Notes under the pieces: model-generated | The model's database searches: none | The model's input: only the letters and a program-made list of their open reading frames with translations | Told to the model about the DNA's origin: nothing | Made by a program: the position numbers and the translations under genes | DNA from: an uncultured delta proteobacterium | GTDB lineage: Bacteria; Desulfobacterota; Zymogenia; Zymogenales; Zymogenaceae | Length of the DNA stretch: 64,000 nucleotides | Direction: 5' to 3' | Assembly (NCBI GenBank): GCA_963809875.1 | Contig: CAWELC010000005.1 | Location: forward strand, 152,836 to 216,835 | Shown: positions 52,046 through 64,000 of the stretch, piece after piece | How the letters are laid out: each line of letters begins with the position of its first letter | How positions within the stretch are numbered: the stretch's first letter is position 1

Positions 52046-52240
52046 ATCACATACCTCCCTCATCGGATAGAGATTTAGCAGATTATATCGCCCAGGTCTT
52101 CGGAATGCAAGGGTGTCGACTATATTGGTTGTAAAAGGTCGATGATGGTGATACAAACAGACACATTCTCTCACTATTTTCAGAACCATTCCCGAAAATC
52201 ATTGTCATTAACGGTATCCATGTCCTATGGGAGGCCCGTC

Positions 52241-54514
52241 ATGAAAAAGGCAGTCGTCTTTCTCTGTATCCTGATAGCGTCTTATTCCTTAACGGCGTTT
52301 GCCCAGCCGGAGCAGAAGCTTCCCGATCTGCCGGGTGGAGCCGTCACCATCCCCTGGTCGGACTTCAAAGAGCTCATAAAGGGGTTGATGGCCCCACCCC
52401 CGGTTCCTCCGACCCCGCCGGAGCCGCCCGCCGACTATTCGGTGAGCTCGGCGTCCTACGTTGGGAGGATCGAGGGTGAGAGCGCCGTCTTTTCCGCTTC
52501 GTTTGCGGTGACGATCCTCGCCGAAAAGAAATGGGTCGAGGTACCGCTGGTCTCCGATGAGACGGCAGTCTCCAACGTCATGATGGACGGCGTCCCGGTC
52601 ACCCTCGCGGCGCGGGACGGCTCCTATGTTGTCTTCAGCGACAAGCCGGGAAGGCACATCGTAACGCTGAACTTCTACGTCACCGCGGATTCCGGGTCCG
52701 GAAAGAACGCGGTCGATATCCCTCTGCCGCAGGTCCCGGCGTCAACCCTCACGTTTACGGTTCCCAAGCCGGGGCTTGACATCCAAATCACGCCCGCCCA
52801 CTTCAAGAAGGTCACGCCTTCGGGAGGGGGTACCACACTCGAGGCGGTGCTGCCGATAACCGACCGGGCAGTCATCTCCTGGAGTCCTGCTGTGCGCGAG
52901 GAAGCCTCCGGAACGCTCAGGGTCCAGGCCCAGGTGAACACCATCATCTCGGTGGGAGAGGGGATCATGAAAGGGGTCACCACCGTTACGTATGACATCT
53001 CACACGGGACGCTCTCGAGCTTTTCGATCACGATGCCCGCAGACATCGAAATCATCGATGTCTCGGGGGACGCGGTCCGCGACTGGAAGGTCGTCCCGAA
53101 CGGCGGCACCTCGACGATCCTCGTTACCGCCGGGTTTCCCGCCTCCGGCACGACTAGCATCGTGCTCCTGTATGAGCGCAATATGGGCGGGACGACCGCC
53201 GATATCGAGGTGCCCCAGATCGAGGTGAACAACGTAACCCGGGAGATCGGCTATCTCGCGGTGACCGCGTCCACCAAGGTGGGGGTGGAGGAGATCTCGT
53301 CCAAGAACCTGGCGGGCCTGGACAGCACCGAACTGCCCGCCGAGATGGTCTCGGCATCGGAAAACCCGATCCTCTTTTCCTATAAGTACCTCAAGCACCC
53401 CTATGCCCTCAAGCTTGCGGTGGTGACCTACCAGGATATCCCAAGCCTCACCACGGTGGTCACGAAGGCCGACTTTTCATCCCTGCTCACGGTGCGGGGC
53501 GACCTGGTAACCCGGGCGGTCTTCGAGGTCAAGAATAACGTGAAGCAGTTCATGAGGCTTTCCCTGCCCAAGAAGTCGACCCTCTGGAGCGTCTACGTCT
53601 CCGATCGGCCGGTCAAGCCGTCGATGGACAAGGATGGCGCAATCCTCATCCCGCTGGACCGCTCCACCAGAACCGATAGCTCACTCACCTCGTTTACCGT
53701 CGAGCTCGTCTACATCACGGAGACCAAACCCCTCGGCGCGCTCTTCGGCCGCCGGGAATTTGTCGCCCCCGTTATAGACATCCAGACCGACGCCCAGGCG
53801 TGGACCATCTATCTCCCCGAGCGGTTCGCCTACCGGAGTGTTGGAAAAGACATGGAGAAGGCCGCGCCGACCCCCGTGGTAAGTGGGGGGGAGATGGAGA
53901 GCAACGCCCCGGCCACGGCTCCCACCGAGGAGATGACGGTGTCCGACGAGATGTATCGTGATAAGAAGGAGGCGCCTAAAACCCAGATCTACACCGAAAA
54001 GAATATCTACGCGGAGGGACTCTTGTCGATCGGAGGCGGCGCAGGGATGAAAGGTGTGCTGCCGGTGAAACTCGATATCCCCTTTTCCGGCCGTGCGATG
54101 GGTTTTACCAAGGCGATCGTCAGGCCCGGCGAGCTATCGACCGTTGCCATCAGGTATGAGGGCAGGGGGCTCTCGAGCCTGTTCCTTTATCTCGGGGTCG
54201 TCCTGTGTGCCCTCCTGTTTGTCTGCATTATTATCTCGGTACGACAGTCGGTTGGGGCGCGGCACATCGTCATCGAGCCAGGGCTTGCAGCGCTTTTCGT
54301 CTCGTCACTGATTGCGATCATCCTGATATCCGTTTTCCTGATTATGGACGTCGCTGCGATATGGTGGGGGCTTTTCATCGCCATTATCGTCGGCGGCTCC
54401 CTTTTCGTGAGGGACCTGATCGTAAGACTCAAGGAGTCGGCCGAGCGGTCGAAAGCCCAAGGCGTCAGGCAGGAGAAAGAGCGGACGCGGTCGGAAAAGA
54501 AGCATGAGAAATAA
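52241..54514 (+). CDS. Large secreted / C-terminally membrane-anchored protein of unknown function (paralog A)
   Basis: Start MKKAVVFLCILIASYSLTAFA has a signal peptide and a GGGAGG RBS. Motif TIPWSDFKEL, then a Pro-rich PPPVPPTPPEPP stretch. About 620 aa are predicted extracytoplasmic and beta-rich. The C-terminus has 3 hydrophobic helices and a KR-rich tail. Confidence 0.55.
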   Translation: MKKAVVFLCILIASYSLTAFAQPEQKLPDLPGGAVTIPWSDFKELIKGLMAPPPVPPTPPEPPADYSVSSASYVGRIEGESAVFSASFAVTILAEKKWVEVPLVSDETAVSNVMMDGVPVTLAARDGSYVVFSDKPGRHIVTLNFYVTADSGSGKNAVDIPLPQVPASTLTFTVPKPGLDIQITPAHFKKVTPSGGGTTLEAVLPITDRAVISWSPAVREEASGTLRVQAQVNTIISVGEGIMKGVTTVTYDISHGTLSSFSITMPADIEIIDVSGDAVRDWKVVPNGGTSTILVTAGFPASGTTSIVLLYERNMGGTTADIEVPQIEVNNVTREIGYLAVTASTKVGVEEISSKNLAGLDSTELPAEMVSASENPILFSYKYLKHPYALKLAVVTYQDIPSLTTVVTKADFSSLLTVRGDLVTRAVFEVKNNVKQFMRLSLPKKSTLWSVYVSDRPVKPSMDKDGAILIPLDRSTRTDSSLTSFTVELVYITETKPLGALFGRREFVAPVIDIQTDAQAWTIYLPERFAYRSVGKDMEKAAPTPVVSGGEMESNAPATAPTEEMTVSDEMYRDKKEAPKTQIYTEKNIYAEGLLSIGGGAGMKGVLPVKLDIPFSGRAMGFTKAIVRPGELSTVAIRYEGRGLSSLFLYLGVVLCALLFVCIIISVRQSVGARHIVIEPGLAALFVSSLIAIILISVFLIMDVAAIWWGLFIAIIVGGSLFVRDLIVRLKESAERSKAQGVRQEKERTRSEKKHEK

Positions 54515-56498
54515 GATTCTCGCGGCGCTCTGCGTCCTCTTCCTGCTGCCGTTGGCCGCCGGTCAGGCCCGCGCCGAGAAGGGGACACTGCCGCCGATGC
54601 CTGATACGAAGATCACCGTGCCCTGGGACGACTTCGTGAGGATGATGGAGGGGTTAGCGTCGCATCCGGCCCCTCCCGTTCCTCCCCCGCCGACCGACCT
54701 GGCCGTCGGGCGGGCGTCCTACACCATGCGCATTGTGCCGGGCCGGCTCGAGACCGCGGTGACCCTTGATGTGAGGAGTTACGGGGACGGCTGGCACGAG
54801 ATCTTCGTCGCCGGACGGGATACCCCTCTGATCTCCCTTACCGTCGACGGCATTGATGCGGTGACCCTGGTGAAAGACGACGGGGTATGGGCGGCCCTGC
54901 CGGGAGAAGGAAAAAGGACGATCCGGGCACTCCTCGTCACGGAGGCCCCCGATACCCCCGGACCCCACACGGTGGCGATCCCGGGTCCGACCGCGGCGGC
55001 CAGGGAAATCGACCTGAGCTACCCGCGCAATTACACGGACGTGGGGGTCGGCGGGGTGGTCACCGCGTCGATGCCGGGGAGGCTCTCGGCGGTCTTGGCG
55101 GGCGGCGGCAGCATCGAGGTCTCCTATACCGTGGCCGCCGTGGAGAAGATAGAGACCACCGGGAAGAAGGCCACGGGCCCTCCCGTGGTGACCGCGCAGC
55201 TCTTCACGGCCATGGATATCGAAGAAGAGGCGATCCTCCTTTCGGTCCGCATCGACTATGAGGTGAAGAACGGCCCCGTACGGTCGTTTCGGGTGAGTCT
55301 TCCCCAGGGCTTTGACCTCCTGGACGTAAAGGGCGACGGTATCGCCTCCTGGGAGACATCTCAGGACCGCACGGGGCTTACCGCTGCGATCGGTTACGAT
55401 GTTTCCGGCCCCTACTCCCTTTTTCTCTCCTTTGAGAAGGCAATGAGCGACGAGCTTGGCTCGATCGAATTTCCCCGGGTTGTCCCCGCGGGCGCGGAGC
55501 GGTCGACGGGATACGTGACGGTCGTCTCGGGAGGGGGCTTTGAAGTCACCGAGCTCAAGTCAAAGCTCCTCACGCCCCGGGATCCTACCGAGCTCCCGGA
55601 AGGGGTCTTTTCGCTCTCGGCGCTGCCGCCTATACTGGCCTACCGCTTCACCGACCCCCGTTACAGCCTCACGGTGGGGATTCGAAAAGGGGAGGCCCTG
55701 TCGGCGCTTTCGGGCTTTGCCGATTCGGCAAACTCCGTTATCCTCGTGACGGCGGACGGCAAGATGGTCGTCAGGACCAACTACTTCGTGCGAAACAGGA
55801 ACCTCCAGTTCCTCACGATCGTCCTGCCGCCGGAGTCCGTCCTCTGGTCGGCGACGACAAACGGCGTCCCGACAAAGCCGTCCACGGACAAGAAGGGAGT
55901 CGTCCTGGTCCCCCTTCCGATGGGCTCGGGCGGCGCCGACGGGCCGTCCGTGGTCTCCGTCGTTATATTTGTGCCGACACCCACTCTGGGGTGGGCCGGC
56001 CGGCTCTTTCTGCCGCTGCCGCGGCTTGAAATTCCGACCGGCCAGGTAATGGCGACCTTTTACCTCCCGGAGGGTATGAGCTATCTTTCCTTCGGCGGCG
56101 ACATGGAGCAGATCAAATATTTCACGGAGCTGCTCTCACCCGGCTCATCCGAAAGCTTCGTCGAGGAGAACCTGCGCCTGCGTAAATCCGTCTACGAGCG
56201 GCAGGAAGACCTTGAAAACGTCATAAACGAACAGCAGCAGATGCCCGATAAGGGGGGCGCGGGGCTGCCGCCGGCGCCCGAGGGATTCGACCTGCCGCTT
56301 TCGGGGAAGGTCTATCGGTTCGTGAAACTGATAACGATGGGCGAGGAGACGAGCGTAGTCGCCACCTACGTCGATCTGCGCCTCCTCGTCGCAGGCATCC
56401 TGCTCCTGCTGATCGTGGTTGGAGGAGGGGCTCTTCGATACAGGCGGAAGTTACGGAGTATAGTGACCGGCCGAACCGGGGACAGGGATATCCGCTAG
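54504..56498 (+). CDS. Large secreted / C-terminally membrane-anchored protein of unknown function (paralog B)
   Basis: Signal peptide MRNKILAALCVLFLLPLAAGQARA. It has the same ITVPWDDF plus PAPPVPPPP motif order and the same C-terminal TM anchor as paralog A. It overlaps A's stop by 11 nt. Confidence 0.55.
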   Translation: MRNKILAALCVLFLLPLAAGQARAEKGTLPPMPDTKITVPWDDFVRMMEGLASHPAPPVPPPPTDLAVGRASYTMRIVPGRLETAVTLDVRSYGDGWHEIFVAGRDTPLISLTVDGIDAVTLVKDDGVWAALPGEGKRTIRALLVTEAPDTPGPHTVAIPGPTAAAREIDLSYPRNYTDVGVGGVVTASMPGRLSAVLAGGGSIEVSYTVAAVEKIETTGKKATGPPVVTAQLFTAMDIEEEAILLSVRIDYEVKNGPVRSFRVSLPQGFDLLDVKGDGIASWETSQDRTGLTAAIGYDVSGPYSLFLSFEKAMSDELGSIEFPRVVPAGAERSTGYVTVVSGGGFEVTELKSKLLTPRDPTELPEGVFSLSALPPILAYRFTDPRYSLTVGIRKGEALSALSGFADSANSVILVTADGKMVVRTNYFVRNRNLQFLTIVLPPESVLWSATTNGVPTKPSTDKKGVVLVPLPMGSGGADGPSVVSVVIFVPTPTLGWAGRLFLPLPRLEIPTGQVMATFYLPEGMSYLSFGGDMEQIKYFTELLSPGSSESFVEENLRLRKSVYERQEDLENVINEQQQMPDKGGAGLPPAPEGFDLPLSGKVYRFVKLITMGEETSVVATYVDLRLLVAGILLLLIVVGGGALRYRRKLRSIVTGRTGDRDIR

Positions 56499-56656: not shown

Positions 56657-57412
56657 ATGGAGCTCACCATCCTCGGATCGGGAACCATCGTCGTGTCCCT
56701 GACGCGCTGGTCGCCCGCGTACCTCCTGAGGGCATGCGGCAAGACCATCCTTATCGACCTCGGGCCGGGCGCGCTGAGGCGTATGGTGGAGGCCGGCTCG
56801 GGCATCCTCGATATCGACGCGATCTGTCTTTCCCACTTTCATCCCGACCACGTCGCCGACTTCGTGCCGCTCGTTTTCGCCTCCAAATACGCCGTGGGAA
56901 GCTGCCGCGCCCGGGATCTGACCGTTATCGCTCCCCCGGGGTTCGGTGAATTTTACGCGGGTCTCATCGAGGTCTTCGGCGACTGGATCGTACCCGAGGC
57001 TTACCGGCTCGATATCCGGGAGGCCGACGGCTCGATTGTTGACCTCGGGGCCTGTTGTGTAACGACCGTTTCGGTCAACCACAGTCCCGAGAGTATCGCC
57101 TATCGTTTTGAGGGTGAAGGCGCTTCGCTCGTCTACTCGGGAGACACCGACTGGTCCGACGGCCTCGTCACCCTGGCGCGGGGGGCGGACCTCCTTCTCC
57201 TCGAGTGCTCGTTTCCGGACGACATGAAGGTGCCCGGCCATCTGACTCCCTCGGAGGCGGGAAGGCTCGCCCGTGATGCACGCGTGTCGCACCTGGTCCT
57301 GACGCACCTCTACCCCCCGGTGGAAAACGTGGATATCGTATCGATCGCGGGGGCCTCGTTTACGGGCAGGATCACCGTGGCCGAGGACCTGATGGTTATA
57401 CCGGTGGGCTAA
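56657..57412 (+). CDS. MBL-fold metallo-hydrolase (RNase Z/beta-lactamase superfamily)
   Basis: HFHPDH metal-binding motif and downstream His/Asp ligands. 251 aa. Confidence 0.75.
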   Translation: MELTILGSGTIVVSLTRWSPAYLLRACGKTILIDLGPGALRRMVEAGSGILDIDAICLSHFHPDHVADFVPLVFASKYAVGSCRARDLTVIAPPGFGEFYAGLIEVFGDWIVPEAYRLDIREADGSIVDLGACCVTTVSVNHSPESIAYRFEGEGASLVYSGDTDWSDGLVTLARGADLLLLECSFPDDMKVPGHLTPSEAGRLARDARVSHLVLTHLYPPVENVDIVSIAGASFTGRITVAEDLMVIPVG

Positions 57413-57550: not shown

Positions 57551-59134
57551 CTAATCCGCCTCGGGGGGGTCTTTGGGAGAATATTTTTCCACCAGCGCGT
57601 ACTTCGTCACCTTGCCGACGCTGTTACGGGGAAGCGTCGTCGTGAAGATGATCCGACCCGGCACCTCGTTCGGCGAGAGCCGCTCCCGACACCAGTCGAC
57701 CAATACCCGGTCGCTCGTGTCCTTCCTCGGATCCCTTACCACTACCGCCACCACCCGCTCTCCCGATGGGTAGTCGGGCAAACCGATCACCGCGGCGTCC
57801 ATAACGCCCTCATGGGACGTGAGCACCTCTTCAATGCCCGGAGCGAAGACCGTTCCTCCCGCCGTCACGATCATGTCTTCTCTCCTGCCCAGGAAATAGA
57901 GACACTCGTCTTCGTCCAGGCGGCCCCAGTCACCGGTGTAGAACCAGCCGTCACGATAGGCCGCCCTGGTCCTTTCCTCGTTCTTAAAATATCCCGGGGC
58001 GGCGGTGAGCGCCCGACAGATGATCTGGCCGATCTGACCGGTCGGTACGTCGCGGCCCTTCTCGTCGACGACGCGCAGCTCGGTCCCGAAGCAGCGGGTC
58101 CCCACGGAGGCGGGGTTGGCGCGCTTCTGATCCGGTCCCGCGTGCGCGATGATACCGGCCTCCTGCAGGGCGTAAAACTCGTAGATGTTGGGGCAGATTC
58201 GCTCCCTCACCTCGCGCTGCAGGGCGACGGGAAAGGGGCTGGCCGAAAACGCGATTCCTCTCAGCGACGAGAGATCGTATCGGTCCAGCTGCGGGATCTT
58301 CAGCAGGACCGATGCGACGATAGGAGTCCAGAACGTTATGGTGACGCGCTCCTCTTGGATGATCTTGAGGATTCCCGAGAGGTCGGTAACGTCAGGCTGA
58401 AACAGGACGTTTCGCGCACCGACCAGAAAGCCGGCGCCGTACCACCCCAGGCCCGCCCTGCCGTAGAGCGGAAAGACGGTCAGAATCACATCGGTGCCCG
58501 TGAGGTCGTGCATCGCCGTGAAAAGGCCCAGCGCATTGAGCCCGTTGCCGTGGGTAAGGGGGAAGACCTTCTGCACGCCGGTCGTGCGGGAGGTAGTGTC
58601 GATGCACTGGATGTCGTCGGAATCTACCTCAATAAAGGGAAGCGTGGCGGGACAGCCCCAAATCAATTCTTCATAGGGCAGGGCGGTTTCGGCCGTCTGT
58701 TTGCCGATACAGATGAAGGTCTCGATATCGGGCAGCGCCTTTCTGACCTCGGCCGCGGTCGGGGCGTAGATGTCCTCAAACAGAAAGAGCCGGGCACCGA
58801 CGAACCTGAGATATTCGACGATCTGATCGGGGCCGAACCCCCACTGGAGGGGCACGGCGACGGCTCCGATCTTAACGAGGGCGCCGTATATCTCTCCGGC
58901 CTCGGCCCGATTCCTGCACTGAAAGGCGCAGTGGTCGCCCTTTTGTATCCCCAGCGAGAGCAGGGCGTTGGCCAGACGATTCATCCGCTCGTTCACCTCG
59001 CGGAACGAGAAGCGCCGGCCCGTCATCGAGCAGAAGACGGCCTCACGATCCCGATAGCGGGCGGCCGCGGTCTTGGGGAGGTTTGACTGGGTTACCTGCG
59101 ACGCCCGAAAGAGTGATCGATCGATCCGGCTCAT
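57551..59134 (-). CDS. AMP-dependent synthetase/ligase (acyl-CoA synthetase / adenylate-forming enzyme)
   Basis: Adenylation-superfamily motifs (TSRTTGVQK..; YGRAG..; TGD.GR.DEDG; C-terminal lysine motif PRNSVGKV). Start taken at the ATG at 59134, which overlaps the peptidase stop (ATGA). Confidence 0.75.
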   Translation of the reverse strand: MSRIDRSLFRASQVTQSNLPKTAAARYRDREAVFCSMTGRRFSFREVNERMNRLANALLSLGIQKGDHCAFQCRNRAEAGEIYGALVKIGAVAVPLQWGFGPDQIVEYLRFVGARLFLFEDIYAPTAAEVRKALPDIETFICIGKQTAETALPYEELIWGCPATLPFIEVDSDDIQCIDTTSRTTGVQKVFPLTHGNGLNALGLFTAMHDLTGTDVILTVFPLYGRAGLGWYGAGFLVGARNVLFQPDVTDLSGILKIIQEERVTITFWTPIVASVLLKIPQLDRYDLSSLRGIAFSASPFPVALQREVRERICPNIYEFYALQEAGIIAHAGPDQKRANPASVGTRCFGTELRVVDEKGRDVPTGQIGQIICRALTAAPGYFKNEERTRAAYRDGWFYTGDWGRLDEDECLYFLGRREDMIVTAGGTVFAPGIEEVLTSHEGVMDAAVIGLPDYPSGERVVAVVVRDPRKDTSDRVLVDWCRERLSPNEVPGRIIFTTTLPRNSVGKVTKYALVEKYSPKDPPEAD

Positions 59135-59577
59135 GACCTCATAGTCTCCTGACCGAACAATGAGAGAGAACGTGCGCGTATCCACCGCGCGGCCTTCCCC
59201 AGCCTTCCCTTGACGATTCCTGCGGTCAGGTTTCTCCGCGAAAGGGCGGCCGTCACGCCCCCAAAGCGGGGCCGGACGAGACGGCGGTCAGAACGGGAAA
59301 CCATGATGACCCTGAGGATGCCCCCGGGAGGGACGGCGGTGGGTGGGTCCGGGTAGGTGAGATTGTCTCCCTTGGTGACGATGACTGGCGGACTCACGCT
59401 CCGGTCGACGCCGATTATCCTGTGGACGACCAGCTCCTTCTTTCGGGGGACGCAGACGATATCGCCGATTGCGCAGTCGGCGGGCCGGACGGTATCAAGG
59501 ATCAGGGTATCGCCCGGGCGGAGTGCCGGGTACATGCTGTATCCCTGAAAAGCGATGCGTCGGTAGTCCATCGTCAT
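59131..59577 (-). CDS. S26-family signal-peptidase-I-like peptidase (short, no obvious TM anchor)
   Basis: Start trimmed to MTMDYRR. The Ser box is GYSMYPAL. The Lys/Arg box is GDIVCVPRKKELVVHRIIGV, matching the SPase I/TraF arrangement. Confidence 0.55.
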   Translation of the reverse strand: MTMDYRRIAFQGYSMYPALRPGDTLILDTVRPADCAIGDIVCVPRKKELVVHRIIGVDRSVSPPVIVTKGDNLTYPDPPTAVPPGGILRVIMVSRSDRRLVRPRFGGVTAALSRRNLTAGIVKGRLGKAARWIRARSLSLFGQETMRS

Positions 59578-59614: not shown

Positions 59615-59869
59615 TTAGGGCGCCTTCCCGTAGTTGCAGCGCACCGCGGTGGCGCCGTCGCGGCAGTTTTGCGGCGTGGCCGAAGGGCCCTGTGCGCACG
59701 CAACCGTCGCCTGGGCTCCGCCGGAGCACTGGCTTGTCGCCTGGGCGCCCGTGGTGCACTGTCCGGTGGCCTGTCCTCCCGTAAGGCATTTCGACTGGCC
59801 CACCGCCTGGGTGTAGTCCACCTGCAGATCGACTATTTTCGGGGGCGCATACGGCTTTTTTGTTTTCAT
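59615..59869 (-). CDS. Candidate RiPP precursor peptide A (84 aa): leader MKTKKPYAPPKIVDLQVDYTQAVG + 6-Cys core with decapeptide repeats
   Basis: ATG at 59869. The core is QSKCLTGGQATGQCTTGAQATSQCSGGAQATVACAQGPSATPQNCRDGATAVRCNYGKAP. Cys spacing is 10/10/10/11/9. Each Cys is preceded by an Ala-Thr dipeptide 4-5 residues upstream. Confidence 0.6.
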   Translation of the reverse strand: MKTKKPYAPPKIVDLQVDYTQAVGQSKCLTGGQATGQCTTGAQATSQCSGGAQATVACAQGPSATPQNCRDGATAVRCNYGKAP

Positions 59870-59981
59870 CAGGAAATCACCAAAAAATTTATTACGGACG
59901 TAAAGGTATAAAAGACAATTGTCACATGATCCGCGGTCGCCGTCCCGGTCCTGTGTGAGCGGGACACCGACGCATCCTCCA

Positions 59982-60206
59982 TTATCCGGATAGTATTGAG
60001 TGGGGTGCGGCGCCATGAATGCATGTCGACGACGTCGCCTTATGACCCATGCTGCATTGATTGTTCGCGCTGTTTCCGCGTGAGCACCGGGCCGCCGCGC
60101 CCTGGCCGGTCGCGCACCGCGACGCGCCCACCGCCTGGGTATAGTCGACCTGCAAATCGATGATCTGAGGCGGCTCATACGGTTTTGTGGGTTTCTTATC
60201 CTTCAT
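59982..60206 (-). CDS. Candidate RiPP precursor peptide B (74 aa): near-identical leader, divergent 4-Cys core
   Basis: ATG at 60206 with a GGGAGA RBS. The leader is MKDKKPTKPYEPPQIIDLQVDYTQAVG. The core is ASRCATGQGAAARCSRGNSANNQCSMGHKATSSTCIHGAAPHSILSG (Cys spacing 10/10/11). Confidence 0.55.
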   Translation of the reverse strand: MKDKKPTKPYEPPQIIDLQVDYTQAVGASRCATGQGAAARCSRGNSANNQCSMGHKATSSTCIHGAAPHSILSG

Positions 60207-61157
60207 GAGGCATCTCCCTGAAGAAAGGGGTGGGCTTGAAATCCCTGGTAAATACCAGCGTCCACGAGGGTTGGTTTTGACACAGCTGCCCTGCGATGCC
60301 GAACGCCCTGAGCGCCGCGTTGCGGCACATGTACCGAAAGAAATGGATGTGATTGGATAACAACATCGCCATGGCCCGGCCCGGCGACAGATCGGCGATC
60401 CGGTCTTCGTTGCCCTTTTCGAGGAAGAGGATGCGCCTGAGAGGAACCGGGCCCGCGACTTCCGCCCCGGGGCGATCTGTGAAAAAGGGGTCGGGAAGAG
60501 AGAGAACGTCCCGCCGGTTTGCGAACACCAGGACCCGTCGTCGGAAAGCACCGCCCCCGGATCCGCCGCGGCTATTGTGCTCTTACCTGCGCCCGAGCTT
60601 CCGACGCAGAGATAGCCCGCGCCGTCCAGGACCAGCGACGCGGCGTGGAGCATCAGTGCGCCGAAATCCGGCGCGCAGACCGCCAGCAGTCCCTGCAGCA
60701 CAGGCGTCAGCGGTGACTCACCGTCCGAATCTTCCTCGACCCTCACGAGGGCCTCCGCCTGTCGGAGCCGGTGATCCACCACCACGAGAAAACAGGGGTG
60801 TGGAATGACCGAGACATCCCCCGAATCGAGATCAGCCAGAAGCGGCAGAGACGCCCCCCCGTCCTTAGCCTGCCGTTTCCTTCCCTGGTTTCCGAACCAT
60901 ATCCTGTTAAAAGGGAACCTCTGTTCGATCGTTTGCGCGATGCGACGGGTGTGTGCAAGGGCTTCAGGTGACAGTATCTCATCCCAGGACTCCCCAACGG
61001 CCCGCCTGATCGACAGATCAATGCCGACTCGATCCCGCCGATGCGTTAAGTGGGACGTATGACCTTTCAACCCACGGCCGGCGTCATTCATCAGCTTACC
61101 CGCAGGATCGTTGACGAAGGTGACCTGTACCGATACCCCTCCGACCGTGACGATCAT
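60196..61157 (-). CDS. P-loop protein resembling HPr-kinase C-terminal domain-like kinases, apparent frameshift near 60525
   Basis: Walker A VGSSGAGKST. The C-terminal part continues in ORF 60196..60528 (VFANRRDVLSLPDPFF...) in another frame. ATGA overlap with the upstream rSAM gene, and its stop overlaps the precursor B start. Confidence 0.45.
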
Positions 61158-62242
61158 CTTTCCACCATCCTGCCGGGCGGGAAAAGACCCTTTTCATAGG
61201 CTTCCTCGCATACCCAGTGCGGGGCGCTCAGGCTTCCCGACAATACGTACGCGTCAGCCCGACATGAACCAAGACAGATTCCTGCCATGAAGCATCGGCC
61301 GCATATTCCCTCCATTCGACGGGGTACAATCTCTCGAAGTCGCCCGAGAACGTGACTGCTTTTCCACACCTGGGCCAGGTCGTCGGTGCGGATGTTGCCC
61401 ATAGTAAGCGACCGCTCTTCCCGTCCGATACCGCAGATCGAGATATCACCGCCGGCCAGAATGCCGATAATGTTCAGTATATAGCACTGGGCGTTTCTTC
61501 CGTCAAAGAGGTGCGAGATCGGTTTGAGGGCCGAAGGGACGGTAAAGAATGTATCTATGCCGTAGCTCGCGGCCAGCTCCCCTTCCACCCACGCACAGAG
61601 GGCCAGCAGCTCTTCAACCGGCAGGGTCTGCCCCTGATCCTTCAAGCTCCCGCCCCTCCCAACGGGGGTGACGGGGTTGATCTTCACGGAACGCGCCCCG
61701 AGCCGTTGGGCCATCTCGACCAATCCCTCGATGTCCGCGGCGTTGTCACGAACGAGGCTCATGATCACCTGAACGGCGATACCCTCTGCCGCCAGAAACT
61801 CAACGCCAGCGGCCGCCCTATTCAGGGCCCCATCTACCCCCCGGAAGCTATCATGGAACGACGCCCGGTGACTGTCAATGCTCACGCTTACGGAACGGAT
61901 GCCATGGTCTTTCAGGAAGGCGGCGGCCTTCCGGTCGATCAGTGTCCCGTTGGTCTCGATCGATGCAGAAAGACCGCTGACGTCCAGCAGCCTGACAATG
62001 TCGAAAACGTCTTCGTTCAGAAACGGCTCCCCCCCGGTGAGCTTGACGCGGGAAAGTCCCAGGGGCCGGGCCGCATCGATGATTTTTTTGACGTCTGCCG
62101 TCGTCAGACGATCACGTACGGCTTCCTGTTGGGGAGTGAAGCTGGGGGATATCCAACAGTGGGCGCAGCGGAGATTACATCCTCCCGAAAGGTACAGGTA
62201 GGCGTGGATCAGAGGATATGCGGGCGTCCTATCGGCTCGCAT
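61154..62242 (-). CDS. Radical SAM / SPASM-domain peptide-modifying enzyme 1
   Basis: Start MRADR at 62242 (GAGGAGGA RBS). CNLRCAHCW (CxxxCxxC) radical SAM motif. C-terminal Cys-rich auxiliary-cluster region (CGIG..., CGRCFMAGICLGSC). Confidence 0.8.
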   Translation of the reverse strand: MRADRTPAYPLIHAYLYLSGGCNLRCAHCWISPSFTPQQEAVRDRLTTADVKKIIDAARPLGLSRVKLTGGEPFLNEDVFDIVRLLDVSGLSASIETNGTLIDRKAAAFLKDHGIRSVSVSIDSHRASFHDSFRGVDGALNRAAAGVEFLAAEGIAVQVIMSLVRDNAADIEGLVEMAQRLGARSVKINPVTPVGRGGSLKDQGQTLPVEELLALCAWVEGELAASYGIDTFFTVPSALKPISHLFDGRNAQCYILNIIGILAGGDISICGIGREERSLTMGNIRTDDLAQVWKSSHVLGRLREIVPRRMEGICGRCFMAGICLGSCRADAYVLSGSLSAPHWVCEEAYEKGLFPPGRMVER

Positions 62243-63428
62243 ATGAATCCTCCTCTTCACGGAGCCTGAGGCAACAGGACGGGTCCCGGGCGAGCGTCGT
62301 GCCGGAGGCGGCCAGCGCCGACGCGGCGCACCCCCCCGTGCAATAGGGGGCATACCGGCAGTCGGTGCAGGTAGGAAGGCTCGCGACCGGGGTAACGAAA
62401 CGCGCCCGAAATTCCTGAAACAGAGGCGATTTCCTCCATATCTCGTCAAGGCCGGTATCCAGGACGTTGCCTGCCACAAGCTCGGTGAGGCGGTCGCACG
62501 GAGTCGCAAACCCATCGGGTCGGATCGCGCATTCCGTGCGCAGCGCGCCGCATCCCGAAAGGCAGTTTATGTCCGCGTCGGCGGGGTTCTCTTTTTCGGC
62601 ACATACCGAGCGAATAGTCGCAAAGATGTCTTCTATTTCGAGGAAGGTGCCGGAGATCGTGGGATTGGCCTCTTTCAGTTCCCTGAGAGACGCCGTGACC
62701 TCGCGTCGTTCTTCGGCGGAGAGACCGAGCTCGCCCCGGTTATCATGGCCCCGACCGAGCGTGATGAGCTCATTGAATTTCACGCCCCGAATGCCGAGCT
62801 CCCCGGCCAGTCTCACCACCTCTTCCAGCCGCCGAAAGTTCAGGCGAGTCACCGTGCAGTAGGCCGAGACCCGCCCGATCTGCCGGACCAGATGTCCCAG
62901 TCCCTCCTCCATCGCCCGGAATGCCCCGGGTCCCCGCAGGGCGTCGTGGACTTGTTCCGTGCCCCCGTCCAGGCTCACCATGACATCGGAGAGCTTTTCC
63001 CCGTATCTTCGGAGACGCCCGGCCGCCCCCGCGTCGATGAGCACGGCGTTCGTGTTAAGAGAGAAGCGGATCGGCTTTGAGAAAAGATGGTCGAGGATGG
63101 TAAAGATATCCTGCCGGGCGAACGGCTCTCCCCCGCTGATCTTGACCCGAAATACTTTAAGATCGGCGATATGGTCGATGAACGAAAGCCATTGGGAGGT
63201 GGTGAGGTCCGGCCCGTAGGAGAGGCCGTCTCCGTAGACGGCACAGTGGCGGCAGGCCAGGTTGCAGCGGGAAGTGATGGAGATAAAGAGTGACAGCGGC
63301 GCCCGCGGTATCCTCGGGGGGACGGGGTATATCTCTCCGGCTGCGGTGGCTGCTTTCTGCCTGCTCACGATAGTCTCTCCCTGTTGTTGGATCCGGGCAG
63401 AAGTCCCCGTCCGGAAGGCCTTACGCAA
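62229..63428 (-). CDS. Radical SAM / SPASM-domain peptide-modifying enzyme 2
   Basis: CNLACRHC radical SAM motif. C-terminal SPASM-like Cys cluster (CLSGCGALRTEC..PCD..CTDCRYAPYCTGGC). It overlaps both neighbours, which suggests translational coupling. Confidence 0.8.
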   Translation of the reverse strand: MRKAFRTGTSARIQQQGETIVSRQKAATAAGEIYPVPPRIPRAPLSLFISITSRCNLACRHCAVYGDGLSYGPDLTTSQWLSFIDHIADLKVFRVKISGGEPFARQDIFTILDHLFSKPIRFSLNTNAVLIDAGAAGRLRRYGEKLSDVMVSLDGGTEQVHDALRGPGAFRAMEEGLGHLVRQIGRVSAYCTVTRLNFRRLEEVVRLAGELGIRGVKFNELITLGRGHDNRGELGLSAEERREVTASLRELKEANPTISGTFLEIEDIFATIRSVCAEKENPADADINCLSGCGALRTECAIRPDGFATPCDRLTELVAGNVLDTGLDEIWRKSPLFQEFRARFVTPVASLPTCTDCRYAPYCTGGCAASALAASGTTLARDPSCCLRLREEEDSYASR

Positions 63429-63930
63429 CGATCAGCCCGCGATCCACCAGCTCCTTGACGAAGGACTCCACGTCCCGGCCGACCTGCTGTGCGTCAACAT
63501 CCGAAAAATGCGCAGCCACCGCGTGGATGATATCGGCAAGGCTCTTTTTCCCGTCGATCTGTCGCATCACCATGAGCCCGGTCTCGTTGATCGCCGAAAG
63601 CTTGTCGCCAACGGGGTCGAATATAAAGGCGCCGTCGTCCTCCTCGCGGATGACGGTCTCCCTCTTGATTTTGGGCGTGAACGAACGATCAGGCGCCATG
63701 GTGAAGACCCCCTCTCTTATGAGCTTGCGACAAATCCTCTTCACGTCCCCGGCTACGGCCCTGTCTTTCTCACCGAATTCCCGGGCAATCCCCCGCACAA
63801 CCGCGTTGAGGTTTCGTGTGCCGTCGGTAAGTCGAATGACCGCCGCGGCGGTATGGTTGAGGAGATAGACGTTCCGGTCGCCGGTGTCAAAAAGGACAAG
63901 CTCGTCCTGGTCGAATTCGGATGCGACCAT
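63421..63930 (-). CDS. PqqD-family peptide chaperone (RiPP recognition element), tandem double domain
   Basis: 169 aa. Two consecutive ~80-aa units each match the PqqD pattern (..YLLNHTAAAVIRLTDG.RNLNAVV.. and ..SAINETGLMVMRQIDGKKSLADII..). Confidence 0.65.
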   Translation of the reverse strand: MVASEFDQDELVLFDTGDRNVYLLNHTAAAVIRLTDGTRNLNAVVRGIAREFGEKDRAVAGDVKRICRKLIREGVFTMAPDRSFTPKIKRETVIREEDDGAFIFDPVGDKLSAINETGLMVMRQIDGKKSLADIIHAVAAHFSDVDAQQVGRDVESFVKELVDRGLIVA

Positions 63931-64000
63931 CCGGCGATTGAGCAGACAGACGCTGCTCTCCGAAAGGGCCGGCCGCCGCTCGGAAAGACGCCGCAGGACA

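Follow-up and report, generated by a model that had tools for sequence, protein, structure and literature searches.

What is the product of a short, cysteine-periodic gene that lies in one operon with two radical S-adenosylmethionine (SAM) enzymes, and what might those enzymes do to its cysteines? The gene in question, here called precursor A, occupies positions 59615 to 59869 on the minus strand of a 64,000-nucleotide (nt) stretch of DNA from an uncultured delta proteobacterium; that whole stretch is referred to below as the window. An initial annotation, made from the letters alone, had read the gene as the precursor of a peptide ribosomally synthesized and then modified after translation (RiPP), had described its core as six A-T-x-x-(x)-C units of no recognized family, and had predicted up to six cross-links with Thr/Ala as the conserved partner. 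The RiPP setting was borne out, in that two radical SAM/SPASM enzymes and a PqqD-type recognition protein adjoin the gene, and we regard it as highly probable that precursor A is a RiPP precursor modified by radical SAM enzymes. The family assignment and the phase of the repeat came out differently. Precursor A appears to be a divergent branch of the catalogued ScmA-like family, which was defined in silico and is chemically uncharacterized, and its repeat unit appears to begin at the cysteine instead of ending there.

The precursor A gene and its repeat unit

The gene encodes 84 amino acids (aa) followed by a stop codon. Translation of the minus strand gives the leader MKTKKPYAPPKIVDLQVDYTQAVG (residues 1 to 24; 59798..59869), followed by the core QSKCLTGGQATGQCTTGAQATSQCSGGAQATVACAQGPSATPQNCRDGATAVRCNYGKAP (residues 25 to 84). 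The leader bears the family motif Y-E-P-P-x-I-I-D-L...Q-A-V-G, is invariant or nearly invariant across the alignments of homologues (A1 and A2), and ends at a predicted A-V-G|Q cleavage junction. Cysteines are found at residues 28, 38, 48, 58, 69, and 78, which, counted from Q25 as the start of the core, are positions 4, 14, 24, 34, 45, and 54, exactly as initially reported. The five strings quoted for the A-T-x-x-(x)-C unit (QATGQC, QATSQC, QATVAC, SATPQNC, and GATAVRC) are all present, and the cysteines do number six, but A-T stands before only five of them; the first is preceded by QAVGQSK. The core consists of six complete C-x-x-G-x-x-A/P modules with linkers of 2 to 4 residues between them: CLTGGQA (module 1, C28 to A34; 59768..59788), CTTGAQA (module 2, C38 to A44; 59738..59758), CSGGAQA (module 3, C48 to A54; 59708..59728), CAQGPSA (module 4, C58 to A64; 59678..59698), which lies in an 11-residue unit with the linker TPQN after the module, CRDGATA (module 5, C69 to A75; 59645..59665), which lies in a 9-residue unit, and the terminal CNYGKAP (module 6, C78 to P84; 59618..59638), where the peptide stops exactly at +6.

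The Cys spacing is far beyond chance. All five Cys gaps fell within 9 to 11 residues in 5e-5 of 1e6 shuffles of the 60-aa core, and when the cysteines were held fixed, shuffling placed Gly at +3 of all six in ~1e-6 of shuffles and Ala or Pro at +6 of all six in ~1e-4. No DNA-level tandem repeat was found in the gene, which argues that the periodicity is maintained at the protein level. Precursor A is a real, conserved, and translationally plausible gene in an operon of overlapping genes. Its 12 homologues are 51 to 100% identical to it. Differences from the orthologues at codon positions 1, 2, and 3 number 14, 8, and 32 (locus L001) and 22, 15, and 30 (locus L003), and the codon changes that separate precursor A from the L001 orthologue are 26 synonymous and 15 nonsynonymous. 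When all 64 kb were scanned in six frames for runs of three C..G units, only precursor A and a second gene, precursor B, which is described below, came up.

A profile built from 13 close sequences and run against 1.84 billion representatives (E ≤ 1e-3) returned 188 proteins (clusters at 50% identity). The large matches P0014, P0028, P0045, P0049, P0110, and P0152 were rejected as family members, being unrelated exact tandem-repeat proteins without the leader; the statistics given here refer to the ~135 peptides of 50 to 150 aa that have the Y-E-P-P-x-I-I-D-L leader. Among these, the gap from one Cys to the next is 10 residues in 60.4% of cases, 11 in 21.5%, and 9 in 6.6%, so that 88% of gaps measure 9 to 11 and the periodicity on which the first reading depended is kept in homologues. 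Of the 10-residue units, 99% have Gly at +3; position +6 is Ala in 78% and Pro in 9%, and position +7 is Thr in 22%. Over all 776 family cysteines, the corresponding values are 93% for Gly at +3, 73% for Ala or Pro at +6, 49% for Ala at −4, and 17% for Thr at −3. The nearly universal Gly had thus been missed in the initial annotation, and the Thr that it took for a conserved partner is present in only 17 to 22%. Nor is the Ala phased as had been supposed. It is found at +6 in 58 to 78% across family units and is held at +6 from the upstream Cys in 9-, 10-, and 11-residue units alike, so the length variation falls after the Ala. At least 6 residues lie past the last Cys in 135 of 137 peptides, the terminal module has Gly at +3 in 90% with Pro as the commonest residue at +6, and the first Cys comes straight after the leader, with no upstream A-T. 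The constancy of Ala at +6, the residues that follow the last Cys, and the leader directly before the first Cys together point to a repeat unit of C-x-x-G-x-x-A/P plus a linker of 2 to 5 residues, phased downstream of the Cys. The Q-A-T signature is confined to the close clade. Family peptides contain 3 to 14 modules, and whole-unit deletions are seen among close homologues (P0008, P0010, P0011, and P0012); the C-x-x-G-x-x-A unit is therefore both modular and, with 188 clusters, widespread.

Several members of the family have unusual gene structures. In P0157, a single ORF (open reading frame) encodes a PqqD-like domain and, after it, leader and core; P0071 is a precursor with a C-terminal beta-rich domain ending in …LCRLTSTGRKLVQRMMLLK, and P0123 was also called as a fusion; each may be a real fusion or a gene-calling artifact. 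One of the two precursors at locus L005 (L005:1188), from a “Candidatus Zymogenus” metagenome-assembled genome (MAG), has an in-frame TAG exactly where leader and core meet (…AVGQ*RCEAGG…), with ten more Trp-rich C-x-x-G units after it. The TAG may be recoded; alternatively, it may reflect an error of sequencing or the decay of the gene to a pseudogene.

The surrounding SynChlorMet-like cassette

When precursor A was searched against profile hidden Markov models (HMMs), the sole family matched was TIGR04252 ScmA of the SynChlorMet (SCM) cassette, a weak match of 13.7 bits (E 0.056) that does not reach the cut-off of 35; precursor B scored 13.9 bits against the same model. An 82%-identical homologue, P0002, scored 31 bits and carries the JGI name “SynChlorMet cassette protein ScmA,” and SCM models are the best NCBIfam matches of the ScmE-, ScmF-, and ScmC-like genes next to precursor A. 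The repeat, which had been taken for that of no described family, thus appears to be a divergent relative of one. Within the wider family, TIGR04252 was matched by 45 of 134 representatives at E ≤ 0.01 (best E, 4.3e-9), and ten other listed families had one member each; the curated model therefore covers only the fringe of a much larger family.

All of the genes of the cassette lie in a single minus-strand operon, with stops and starts mostly overlapping, in the order tandem PqqD, ScmE-like, ScmF-like, ScmC-like, precursor B, precursor A, S26 peptidase, and acyl-coenzyme A (CoA) ligase. Precursor A is thus a short peptide beside genes of the ScmC/D/E/F type. The features of a radical SAM/SPASM-dependent RiPP system are also found here: Radical_SAM and SPASM domains in both enzymes, PqqD twice, and a leader at a fixed distance from the first Cys. 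The tandem PqqD-type protein (63421..63930, 169 aa) matched Pfam PqqD at 90.1 bits in two stretches, passed the cut-off of 46 for TIGR03859 (66.5 bits), and scored 58.9 bits (cut-off, 100) against TIGR04248 ScmD, which was its third match, behind PqqD itself and the lasso-peptide PqqD chaperone. It is presumed to supply the leader-recognition element(s). Its two stretches resemble PqqD/RiPP recognition elements, and the protein is shorter here than in relatives (169 versus 206 aa); loci L008 and L009 match the second half only. One PqqD recognition domain may possibly serve each radical SAM enzyme.

The two enzymes themselves both carry Pfam Radical_SAM and SPASM domains. The ScmE-like enzyme (62229..63428) scored 203.5 bits against TIGR04250 (cut-off, 400); its nearest solved relatives are PqqE (the closest, 69.9 bits), SkfB, and CteB. 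The ScmF-like enzyme (61154..62242; 362 aa from an ATG at 62242) scored 346.6 bits against TIGR04251 (cut-off, 400). The ScmC-like gene (60196..61157), which encodes a P-loop protein related to HprK, is interrupted by a 1-nt deletion and scored 17.3 bits against TIGR04249, for which an intact orthologue scored 29.8 and the cut-off is 125. Its orthologues are tagged PF27840:ScmC, and comparison with solved structures gave marginal P-loop matches only. A supposed tie between the interruption of this gene and the loss of the C-terminal Ser of the precursor (GKAP versus GKSP) was rejected: P0163 likewise ends in GKAP, yet the ScmC at its locus is intact (330 aa).

Downstream of precursor A lies an S26-type (SEC11/archaeal-like) serine peptidase (59131..59571, 146 aa; TIGR02228, 51.6 bits with a cut-off of 51.85). 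Its YSMYPALRPGD, VHRII, and TKGDN segments align with GSMEPAFHRGD, VHRVI, and TKGDN of SEC11C, giving it the S-M-x-P Ser box, the His general base as in S26B, and the GDN box of S26 members. It is a candidate leader peptidase. The protein starts right at the catalytic-Ser box, and we read it as having no N-terminal membrane anchor, i.e., as soluble. An AMP (adenosine monophosphate)-forming acyl-CoA-ligase-like enzyme (57551..59134; 527 aa from an ATG at 59134) follows, its start overlapping the peptidase stop by 4 nt; it has Pfam AMP-binding and AMP-binding_C domains, matched NF004837 at 334.8 bits (below the cut-off), and is by synteny a conserved accessory gene of the clade. Another resemblance of the ligase is to TIGR03098, the acyl-CoA ligase associated with exosortase A (181.5 bits; cut-off, 592).

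We compared 13 fetched loci (L001 to L013) that span 30 to 90% identity. The order PqqD, ScmE, ScmF, ScmC, precursor, S26 peptidase, AMP ligase is kept in L001 to L004 and L011 to L013, and the short contig L005 retains the part from ScmC to the ligase. The more distant loci L007 to L009 have some or all of PqqD, radical SAM gene(s), and ScmC beside the precursor(s). The precursor is thus co-located with PqqD, radical SAM, and ScmC genes in 11 of 13 loci, the others being L006, with none of them, and L010, with only an ScmF-like enzyme. The peptidase adjoins the precursor in L001 to L005 and L011 to L013, and L010 has a weaker, partial match. Host records of these relatives, which are MAGs of Desulfobacterota/Syntrophia type, name uncultured “delta proteobacteria,” Syntrophaceae, Syntrophus, and “Candidatus Zymogenus” MAGs. 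Since all components score below the NCBIfam cut-offs, we take the cassette to represent a divergent clade; the variant in the window is marked by its six-module precursor, tandem PqqD, S26 peptidase, acyl-CoA ligase, and second precursor.

Candidate fates of the cysteine modules

Since homologues keep the periodicity, one may reasonably expect several local modifications of a uniform kind, and thioether rings are the first candidate. Taken as a whole, the best explanation, which we hold to be on balance probable, is that precursor A would be the substrate of a divergent SCM-type RiPP cassette, its modules being modified locally and its leader removed. PqqD-type domains bind leaders, and SPASM enzymes act on the tethered core. 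In the scheme that we propose, the leader motif K-P-Y-x-P-P-K-I-V-D-L would be bound by the PqqD-type recognition domain(s), and the core would be presented to both SPASM radical SAM enzymes at a fixed distance from the leader; in 64 of 137 peptides, about half of the family, the first Cys lies 21 residues from the Tyr of the leader, a spacing that fits such ruler-like presentation. The enzymes would then treat each module iteratively and locally, a mode suggested by the gain and loss of modules as whole units, which argues against the nested hairpin of classical sactipeptides. In each module one S-C thioether would join the Cys sulfur to a downstream residue of the same module, either Gly +3 (a streptosactin-like i to i+3 sactionine) or Ala/Pro +6, and the outcome would be six small unnested rings (−12 Da). 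The second radical SAM enzyme might install a subset of the rings or carry out a different step. The ScmC-like nucleoside triphosphate (NTP)-binding protein and the acyl-CoA ligase would add or assist further tailoring.

Type I signal peptidases follow a −3/−1 small-residue rule. In the 61 scored peptides with the 21-residue spacing, Ala is found six residues before the first Cys in 69% and Gly four residues before it in 74%, so that the A-V-G|Q junction fits this rule, and the S26-type peptidase would remove the leader after A22-V23-G24, leaving Q25 as the first residue of the core.

Thioether formation is the commonest fate of Cys in radical SAM/SPASM RiPP systems. That background and a set of precedents led us to favor one thioether per module: the precedents are freyrasin, with six Cys-Asp S-Cbeta rings (PMC8172795, PMC11002830), streptosactin, with unnested Cys25-Ser28 and Cys31-Gly34 sactionines (PMC8172795), StsA, with Cys-to-Gly sactionines (PMC10288494), and thermocellin, with a Cys-Thr S-Cgamma link (PMC8172795). 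Even so, we consider the odds that the modification is thioether cross-linking to be about even, and the placement of the rings within modules and downstream of the Cys is a more tentative proposal. It is possible, though doubtful, that ScmA-like peptides form a chemically new RiPP class in which two cooperating SPASM radical SAM enzymes remake each C-x-x-G-x-x-A module into a motif not yet described. Such a motif would be, for example, a ladder of tight sactionine rings from Cys to Gly(+3) together with a further radical change at Ala +6, or a “lanthionine” of the form Cys-S-Cbeta(Ala) produced by a radical route; peptides of the class would then bear 3 to 14 identical rings, and in this clade the peptidase, the acyl-CoA ligase, and the HprK-like protein would tailor them further. 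If the chemistry is instead ordinary sactionine or ranthionine formation, the family is one more in a known class. A peptide with at least six identical small rings, installed one after another by an enzyme under leader guidance, would, if real, be of use as a scaffold for engineering, as PapB has become. The repeat unit and its modularity, together with two positions that are candidates for the acceptor, a likely site of leader cleavage, and a likely peptidase for it, make the radical SAM chemistry directly testable.

Several observations weigh against this scheme or against parts of it. The choice of Gly +3 or Ala/Pro +6 as the acceptor is a guess, and since one Cys can make one thioether only, the need for two radical SAM enzymes is not accounted for. 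After the SCM models, the next-best HMM relatives of the two enzymes are AhbD, MftC, the GeoRSP-system radical SAM/SPASM family, and NirJ, which are not thioether synthases; models of sactipeptide and ranthipeptide synthases score lower (StsB, 111 to 123 bits with a cut-off of 625; AlbA, 84 with 850; PapB, 69.7 with 340). The solved-structure neighbors of both enzymes (PqqE, SkfB, CteB, BlsE, and MoaA) do not discriminate among chemistries. All SCM components fall under their curated cut-offs (13.7/35, 17.3/125, 58.9/100, 203.5/400, and 346.6/400 bits), so no function can be carried over, not even from the SCM equivalogs, which are just as uncharacterized. No transporter or immunity gene is evident. 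Finally, the 1-nt deletion in the ScmC-like gene, near 60459-60466 by comparison with L001, L003, and L011, splits a frame that is intact in orthologues (323 to 330 aa); the gene may be a true pseudogene, with the local cassette perhaps impaired, or the long-read assembly may be in error.

The alternatives to an intramodular, downstream thioether differ in how they use the same cysteines. One of them, which we consider unlikely, would link each Cys backwards to the A-T four or five residues upstream, closing A-T-x-x-(x)-C rings, for example through an S-Cgamma(Thr) ranthionine as in thermocellin or through an S-Calpha bond to Ala. A-T does precede five of the six cysteines of precursor A, Q-A-T is conserved in the close clade, Cys-Thr S-Cgamma links are known in SCIFF peptides (PMC8172795), and Ala, if it is the acceptor, could serve an upstream or a downstream Cys. 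Against this, Thr at −3 is found for only 17% of the 776 family cysteines (22% in 10-residue units), and when unit length varies, it is the distance of the Ala to the upstream and not to the downstream Cys that stays constant. Backward linkage would also leave the first Cys, with no A-T upstream of it, without a partner, and a full C-x-x-G-x-x-A/P follows the last one, with the at least 6 residues seen in 135 of 137 peptides.

We find it just as improbable that the cysteines are not cross-linked at all but are converted in place, to a thiooxazole-type heterocycle of the kind made by SbtM or to another Cys-derived group, to give a periodic metal-binding or redox array. The GeoRSP-system radical SAM/SPASM family, which we take to be the family of SbtM, is among the better HMM relatives of the enzymes (151.7 and 136.4 bits). 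SbtM turns Cys/Sec into thio(seleno)oxazole (PMC11002830). The hosts are anaerobic Desulfobacterota-type organisms, and no export gene is visible. The GeoRSP similarity is, however, no higher than that to AhbD or MftC and so looks like generic SPASM similarity, and in-place conversion would not explain why Gly is invariant at +3 or why Ala stands at +6.

Still less plausible is a kinase-driven, lanthionine-like route in which the ScmC-like protein phosphorylates Ser/Thr, elimination follows, and Cys adds to the dehydro residue, the radical SAM enzymes doing something else. ScmC is related to HPr-kinase-like proteins, lasso-peptide precursors are tailored by HPr-kinase homologues and nucleotidyltransferase-like enzymes (PMC9266682), an NTP_transf_5 gene precedes the cassette in relatives, and T-x-x-C is present in the clade. 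Among the cassette genes, however, Pfam and NCBIfam gave no match to a lyase, a cyclase, or a domain of the LanB/C, LanM, LanKC, or LanL type; Ser/Thr is conserved at no fixed module position in the family; and here ScmC carries a frameshift, whereas purifying selection acts on the precursor.

Equally remote, in our estimation, is the idea of an unmodified Cys-ladder peptide, a structural repeat or a metal-binding mini-protein, with radical SAM neighbors that are incidental. Periodic Cys repeats do occur in the unrelated profile matches P0014, P0028, and P0045, but those are exact tandem repeats without a leader. A family precursor without such neighbors also exists: the orphan at L006 (9992-10321; 109 aa, 10 Cys modules) lies amid housekeeping genes (cytochrome c assembly and formate-tetrahydrofolate ligase), and radical SAM and PqqD genes are absent within ~4-5 kb of it. 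Co-location in 11 of 13 loci across 30 to 90% identity, and a leader conserved at a fixed distance from the first Cys, argue against incidental neighbors. The structural-repeat idea was dropped after AlphaFold2 predicted no fold for precursor A (mean predicted local distance difference test [pLDDT] score, 42), a weak piece of evidence from a shallow alignment. The last alternative, that the ORF arose by chance in GC-rich DNA or is antisense to a real gene, is effectively refuted: mechanical ORFs do exist on the opposite strand, but none of the ORFs that overlap precursor A, on whichever strand, gave a convincing family match (the sole one being DUF5555, E 0.045, 13.7 bits with a cut-off of 25), the third-position, synonymous-substitution bias of the homologues falls in the precursor A frame, and the operon position is conserved.

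Related systems, precursor B, and flanking genes

The closest known counterpart of the cassette is the SCM system itself. Each has a PqqD-type protein, a P-loop protein related to HprK, two radical SAM/SPASM enzymes, and a short precursor rich in Cys, with the same leader and C-x-x-G-x-x-A units. The window differs in its longer precursor (six modules, compared with a 49-position model), its tandem PqqD, its added S26 peptidase and acyl-CoA ligase, and a lineage-specific second precursor. No experimental work on SCM cassettes or on ScmA/C/D/E/F was found in the open-access literature, most subscription journals being outside that scope.

Characterized systems share single features with the cassette. 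Freyrasin (PapA/PapB) has a repeated Cys module, iterative radical SAM/SPASM processing, and six small unnested thioether rings (PMC8172795, PMC11002830), but its conserved Asp acceptor (S-Cbeta) has no counterpart in the precursor A family, whose modules have no conserved acidic residue, and one enzyme acts there compared with two here. A survey of ranthipeptide-type acceptors found Thr at +7 in five of the six precursor A modules, the same residue that is present in 22% of the 10-residue units of the family, and no conserved acidic or amide residue; Ala +6 (78%) could in principle be a Cbeta acceptor. The C-x-x-G ring Cys31-Gly34 of streptosactin (GggA/GggB, a type II sactipeptide; PMC8172795) matches the invariant C-x-x-G seen here. 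Streptosactin differs in having two rings in a 14-mer, a streptococcal quorum-sensing operon, and a single radical SAM enzyme, and no homology between the precursors was detected. The SCIFF/thermocellin systems (CteA/CteB, Tte1186) likewise combine a Cys-rich precursor with a radical SAM/SPASM enzyme, and the ScmE-like enzyme has CteB among its nearest solved relatives. They have no periodic module, and Thr is not conserved in the ScmA-like family. CteB bears its own N-terminal recognition domain, whereas PqqD is a separate protein in the window. The pyrroloquinoline quinone (PQQ) system (PqqA/PqqD/PqqE) resembles the cassette in its stand-alone PqqD and radical SAM/SPASM partner, with PqqE as the closest solved relative of the ScmE-like enzyme, and the K-K-P-...-I-x-D-L leader of precursor A presumably resembles that of PqqA. 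PqqE, however, forms a single C-C bond, between Glu and Tyr, in a peptide of 23 aa; there is no Cys array in PqqA, and PqqB, PqqC, and PqqF genes are absent here. GeoRSP/SbtM is a radical SAM/SPASM and PqqD-family cassette of Desulfobacterota-type bacteria that acts on Cys/Sec (PMC11002830); its target is a single Cys/Sec compared with a periodic array, and the GeoRSP scores are 136 to 152 bits with a cut-off of 400.

Precursor B (59982..60206, 74 aa) has the leader of precursor A and the four modules CATGQGA, CSRGNSA, CSMGHKA, and CIHGAAP; it begins shortly before the ScmC-like gene ends, so that the two genes overlap. Together with a 112-nt spacer, it forms an ~337-nt insertion (59870-60206, minus strand) that the closest relatives (L011 to L013 and L001 to L004) do not have; these have a single precursor, which overlaps the ScmC stop. 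Precursor B now sits at the ancestral precursor position, with precursor A, behind the spacer, as the true orthologue. Two precursors are also found in L005, L008, and L009. No record of the exact precursor B sequence was found in a collection of 15 billion proteins, and a look-up of the exact precursor A peptide also came back empty. Between precursors B and A, no consensus sites for a promoter, terminator, or attenuator were found, and the predicted RNA fold of the spacer was no better than that of shuffled sequences (z = −0.6).

Beyond the cassette, relatives carry polysaccharide genes (Poly_export, Wzz/GNVR of the tyrosine-kinase type, Wzy_C, and a GT4 glycosyltransferase) and an NTP_transf_5 (PF14907) gene directly upstream (L001/L002, 1-6165; L011 to L013, 1-2149); the window stops at 64000, short of this region. 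These genes and the likeness of the ligase to TIGR03098 hint at a link of the cassette to the cell envelope or to exopolysaccharide. On its other side, a gene for a metallo-beta-lactamase (MBL)-fold hydrolase (56657-57412, plus strand), RNase Z or cyclic-nucleotide phosphodiesterase like with a weak match to Anti-Pycsar Apyc1, lies between the cassette and two large ORFs and keeps its position in L004 and L011 to L013. The large ORFs (790 and 664 aa; 52142-56498, plus strand) overlap each other on the strand opposite the cassette and have no Pfam or NCBIfam match; the 664-aa ORF has a hydrophobic, signal-peptide-like N terminus. Both lie beside the cassette in L001 and L003, and the 664-aa ORF does so with a 760-aa neighbor in L011 to L013.

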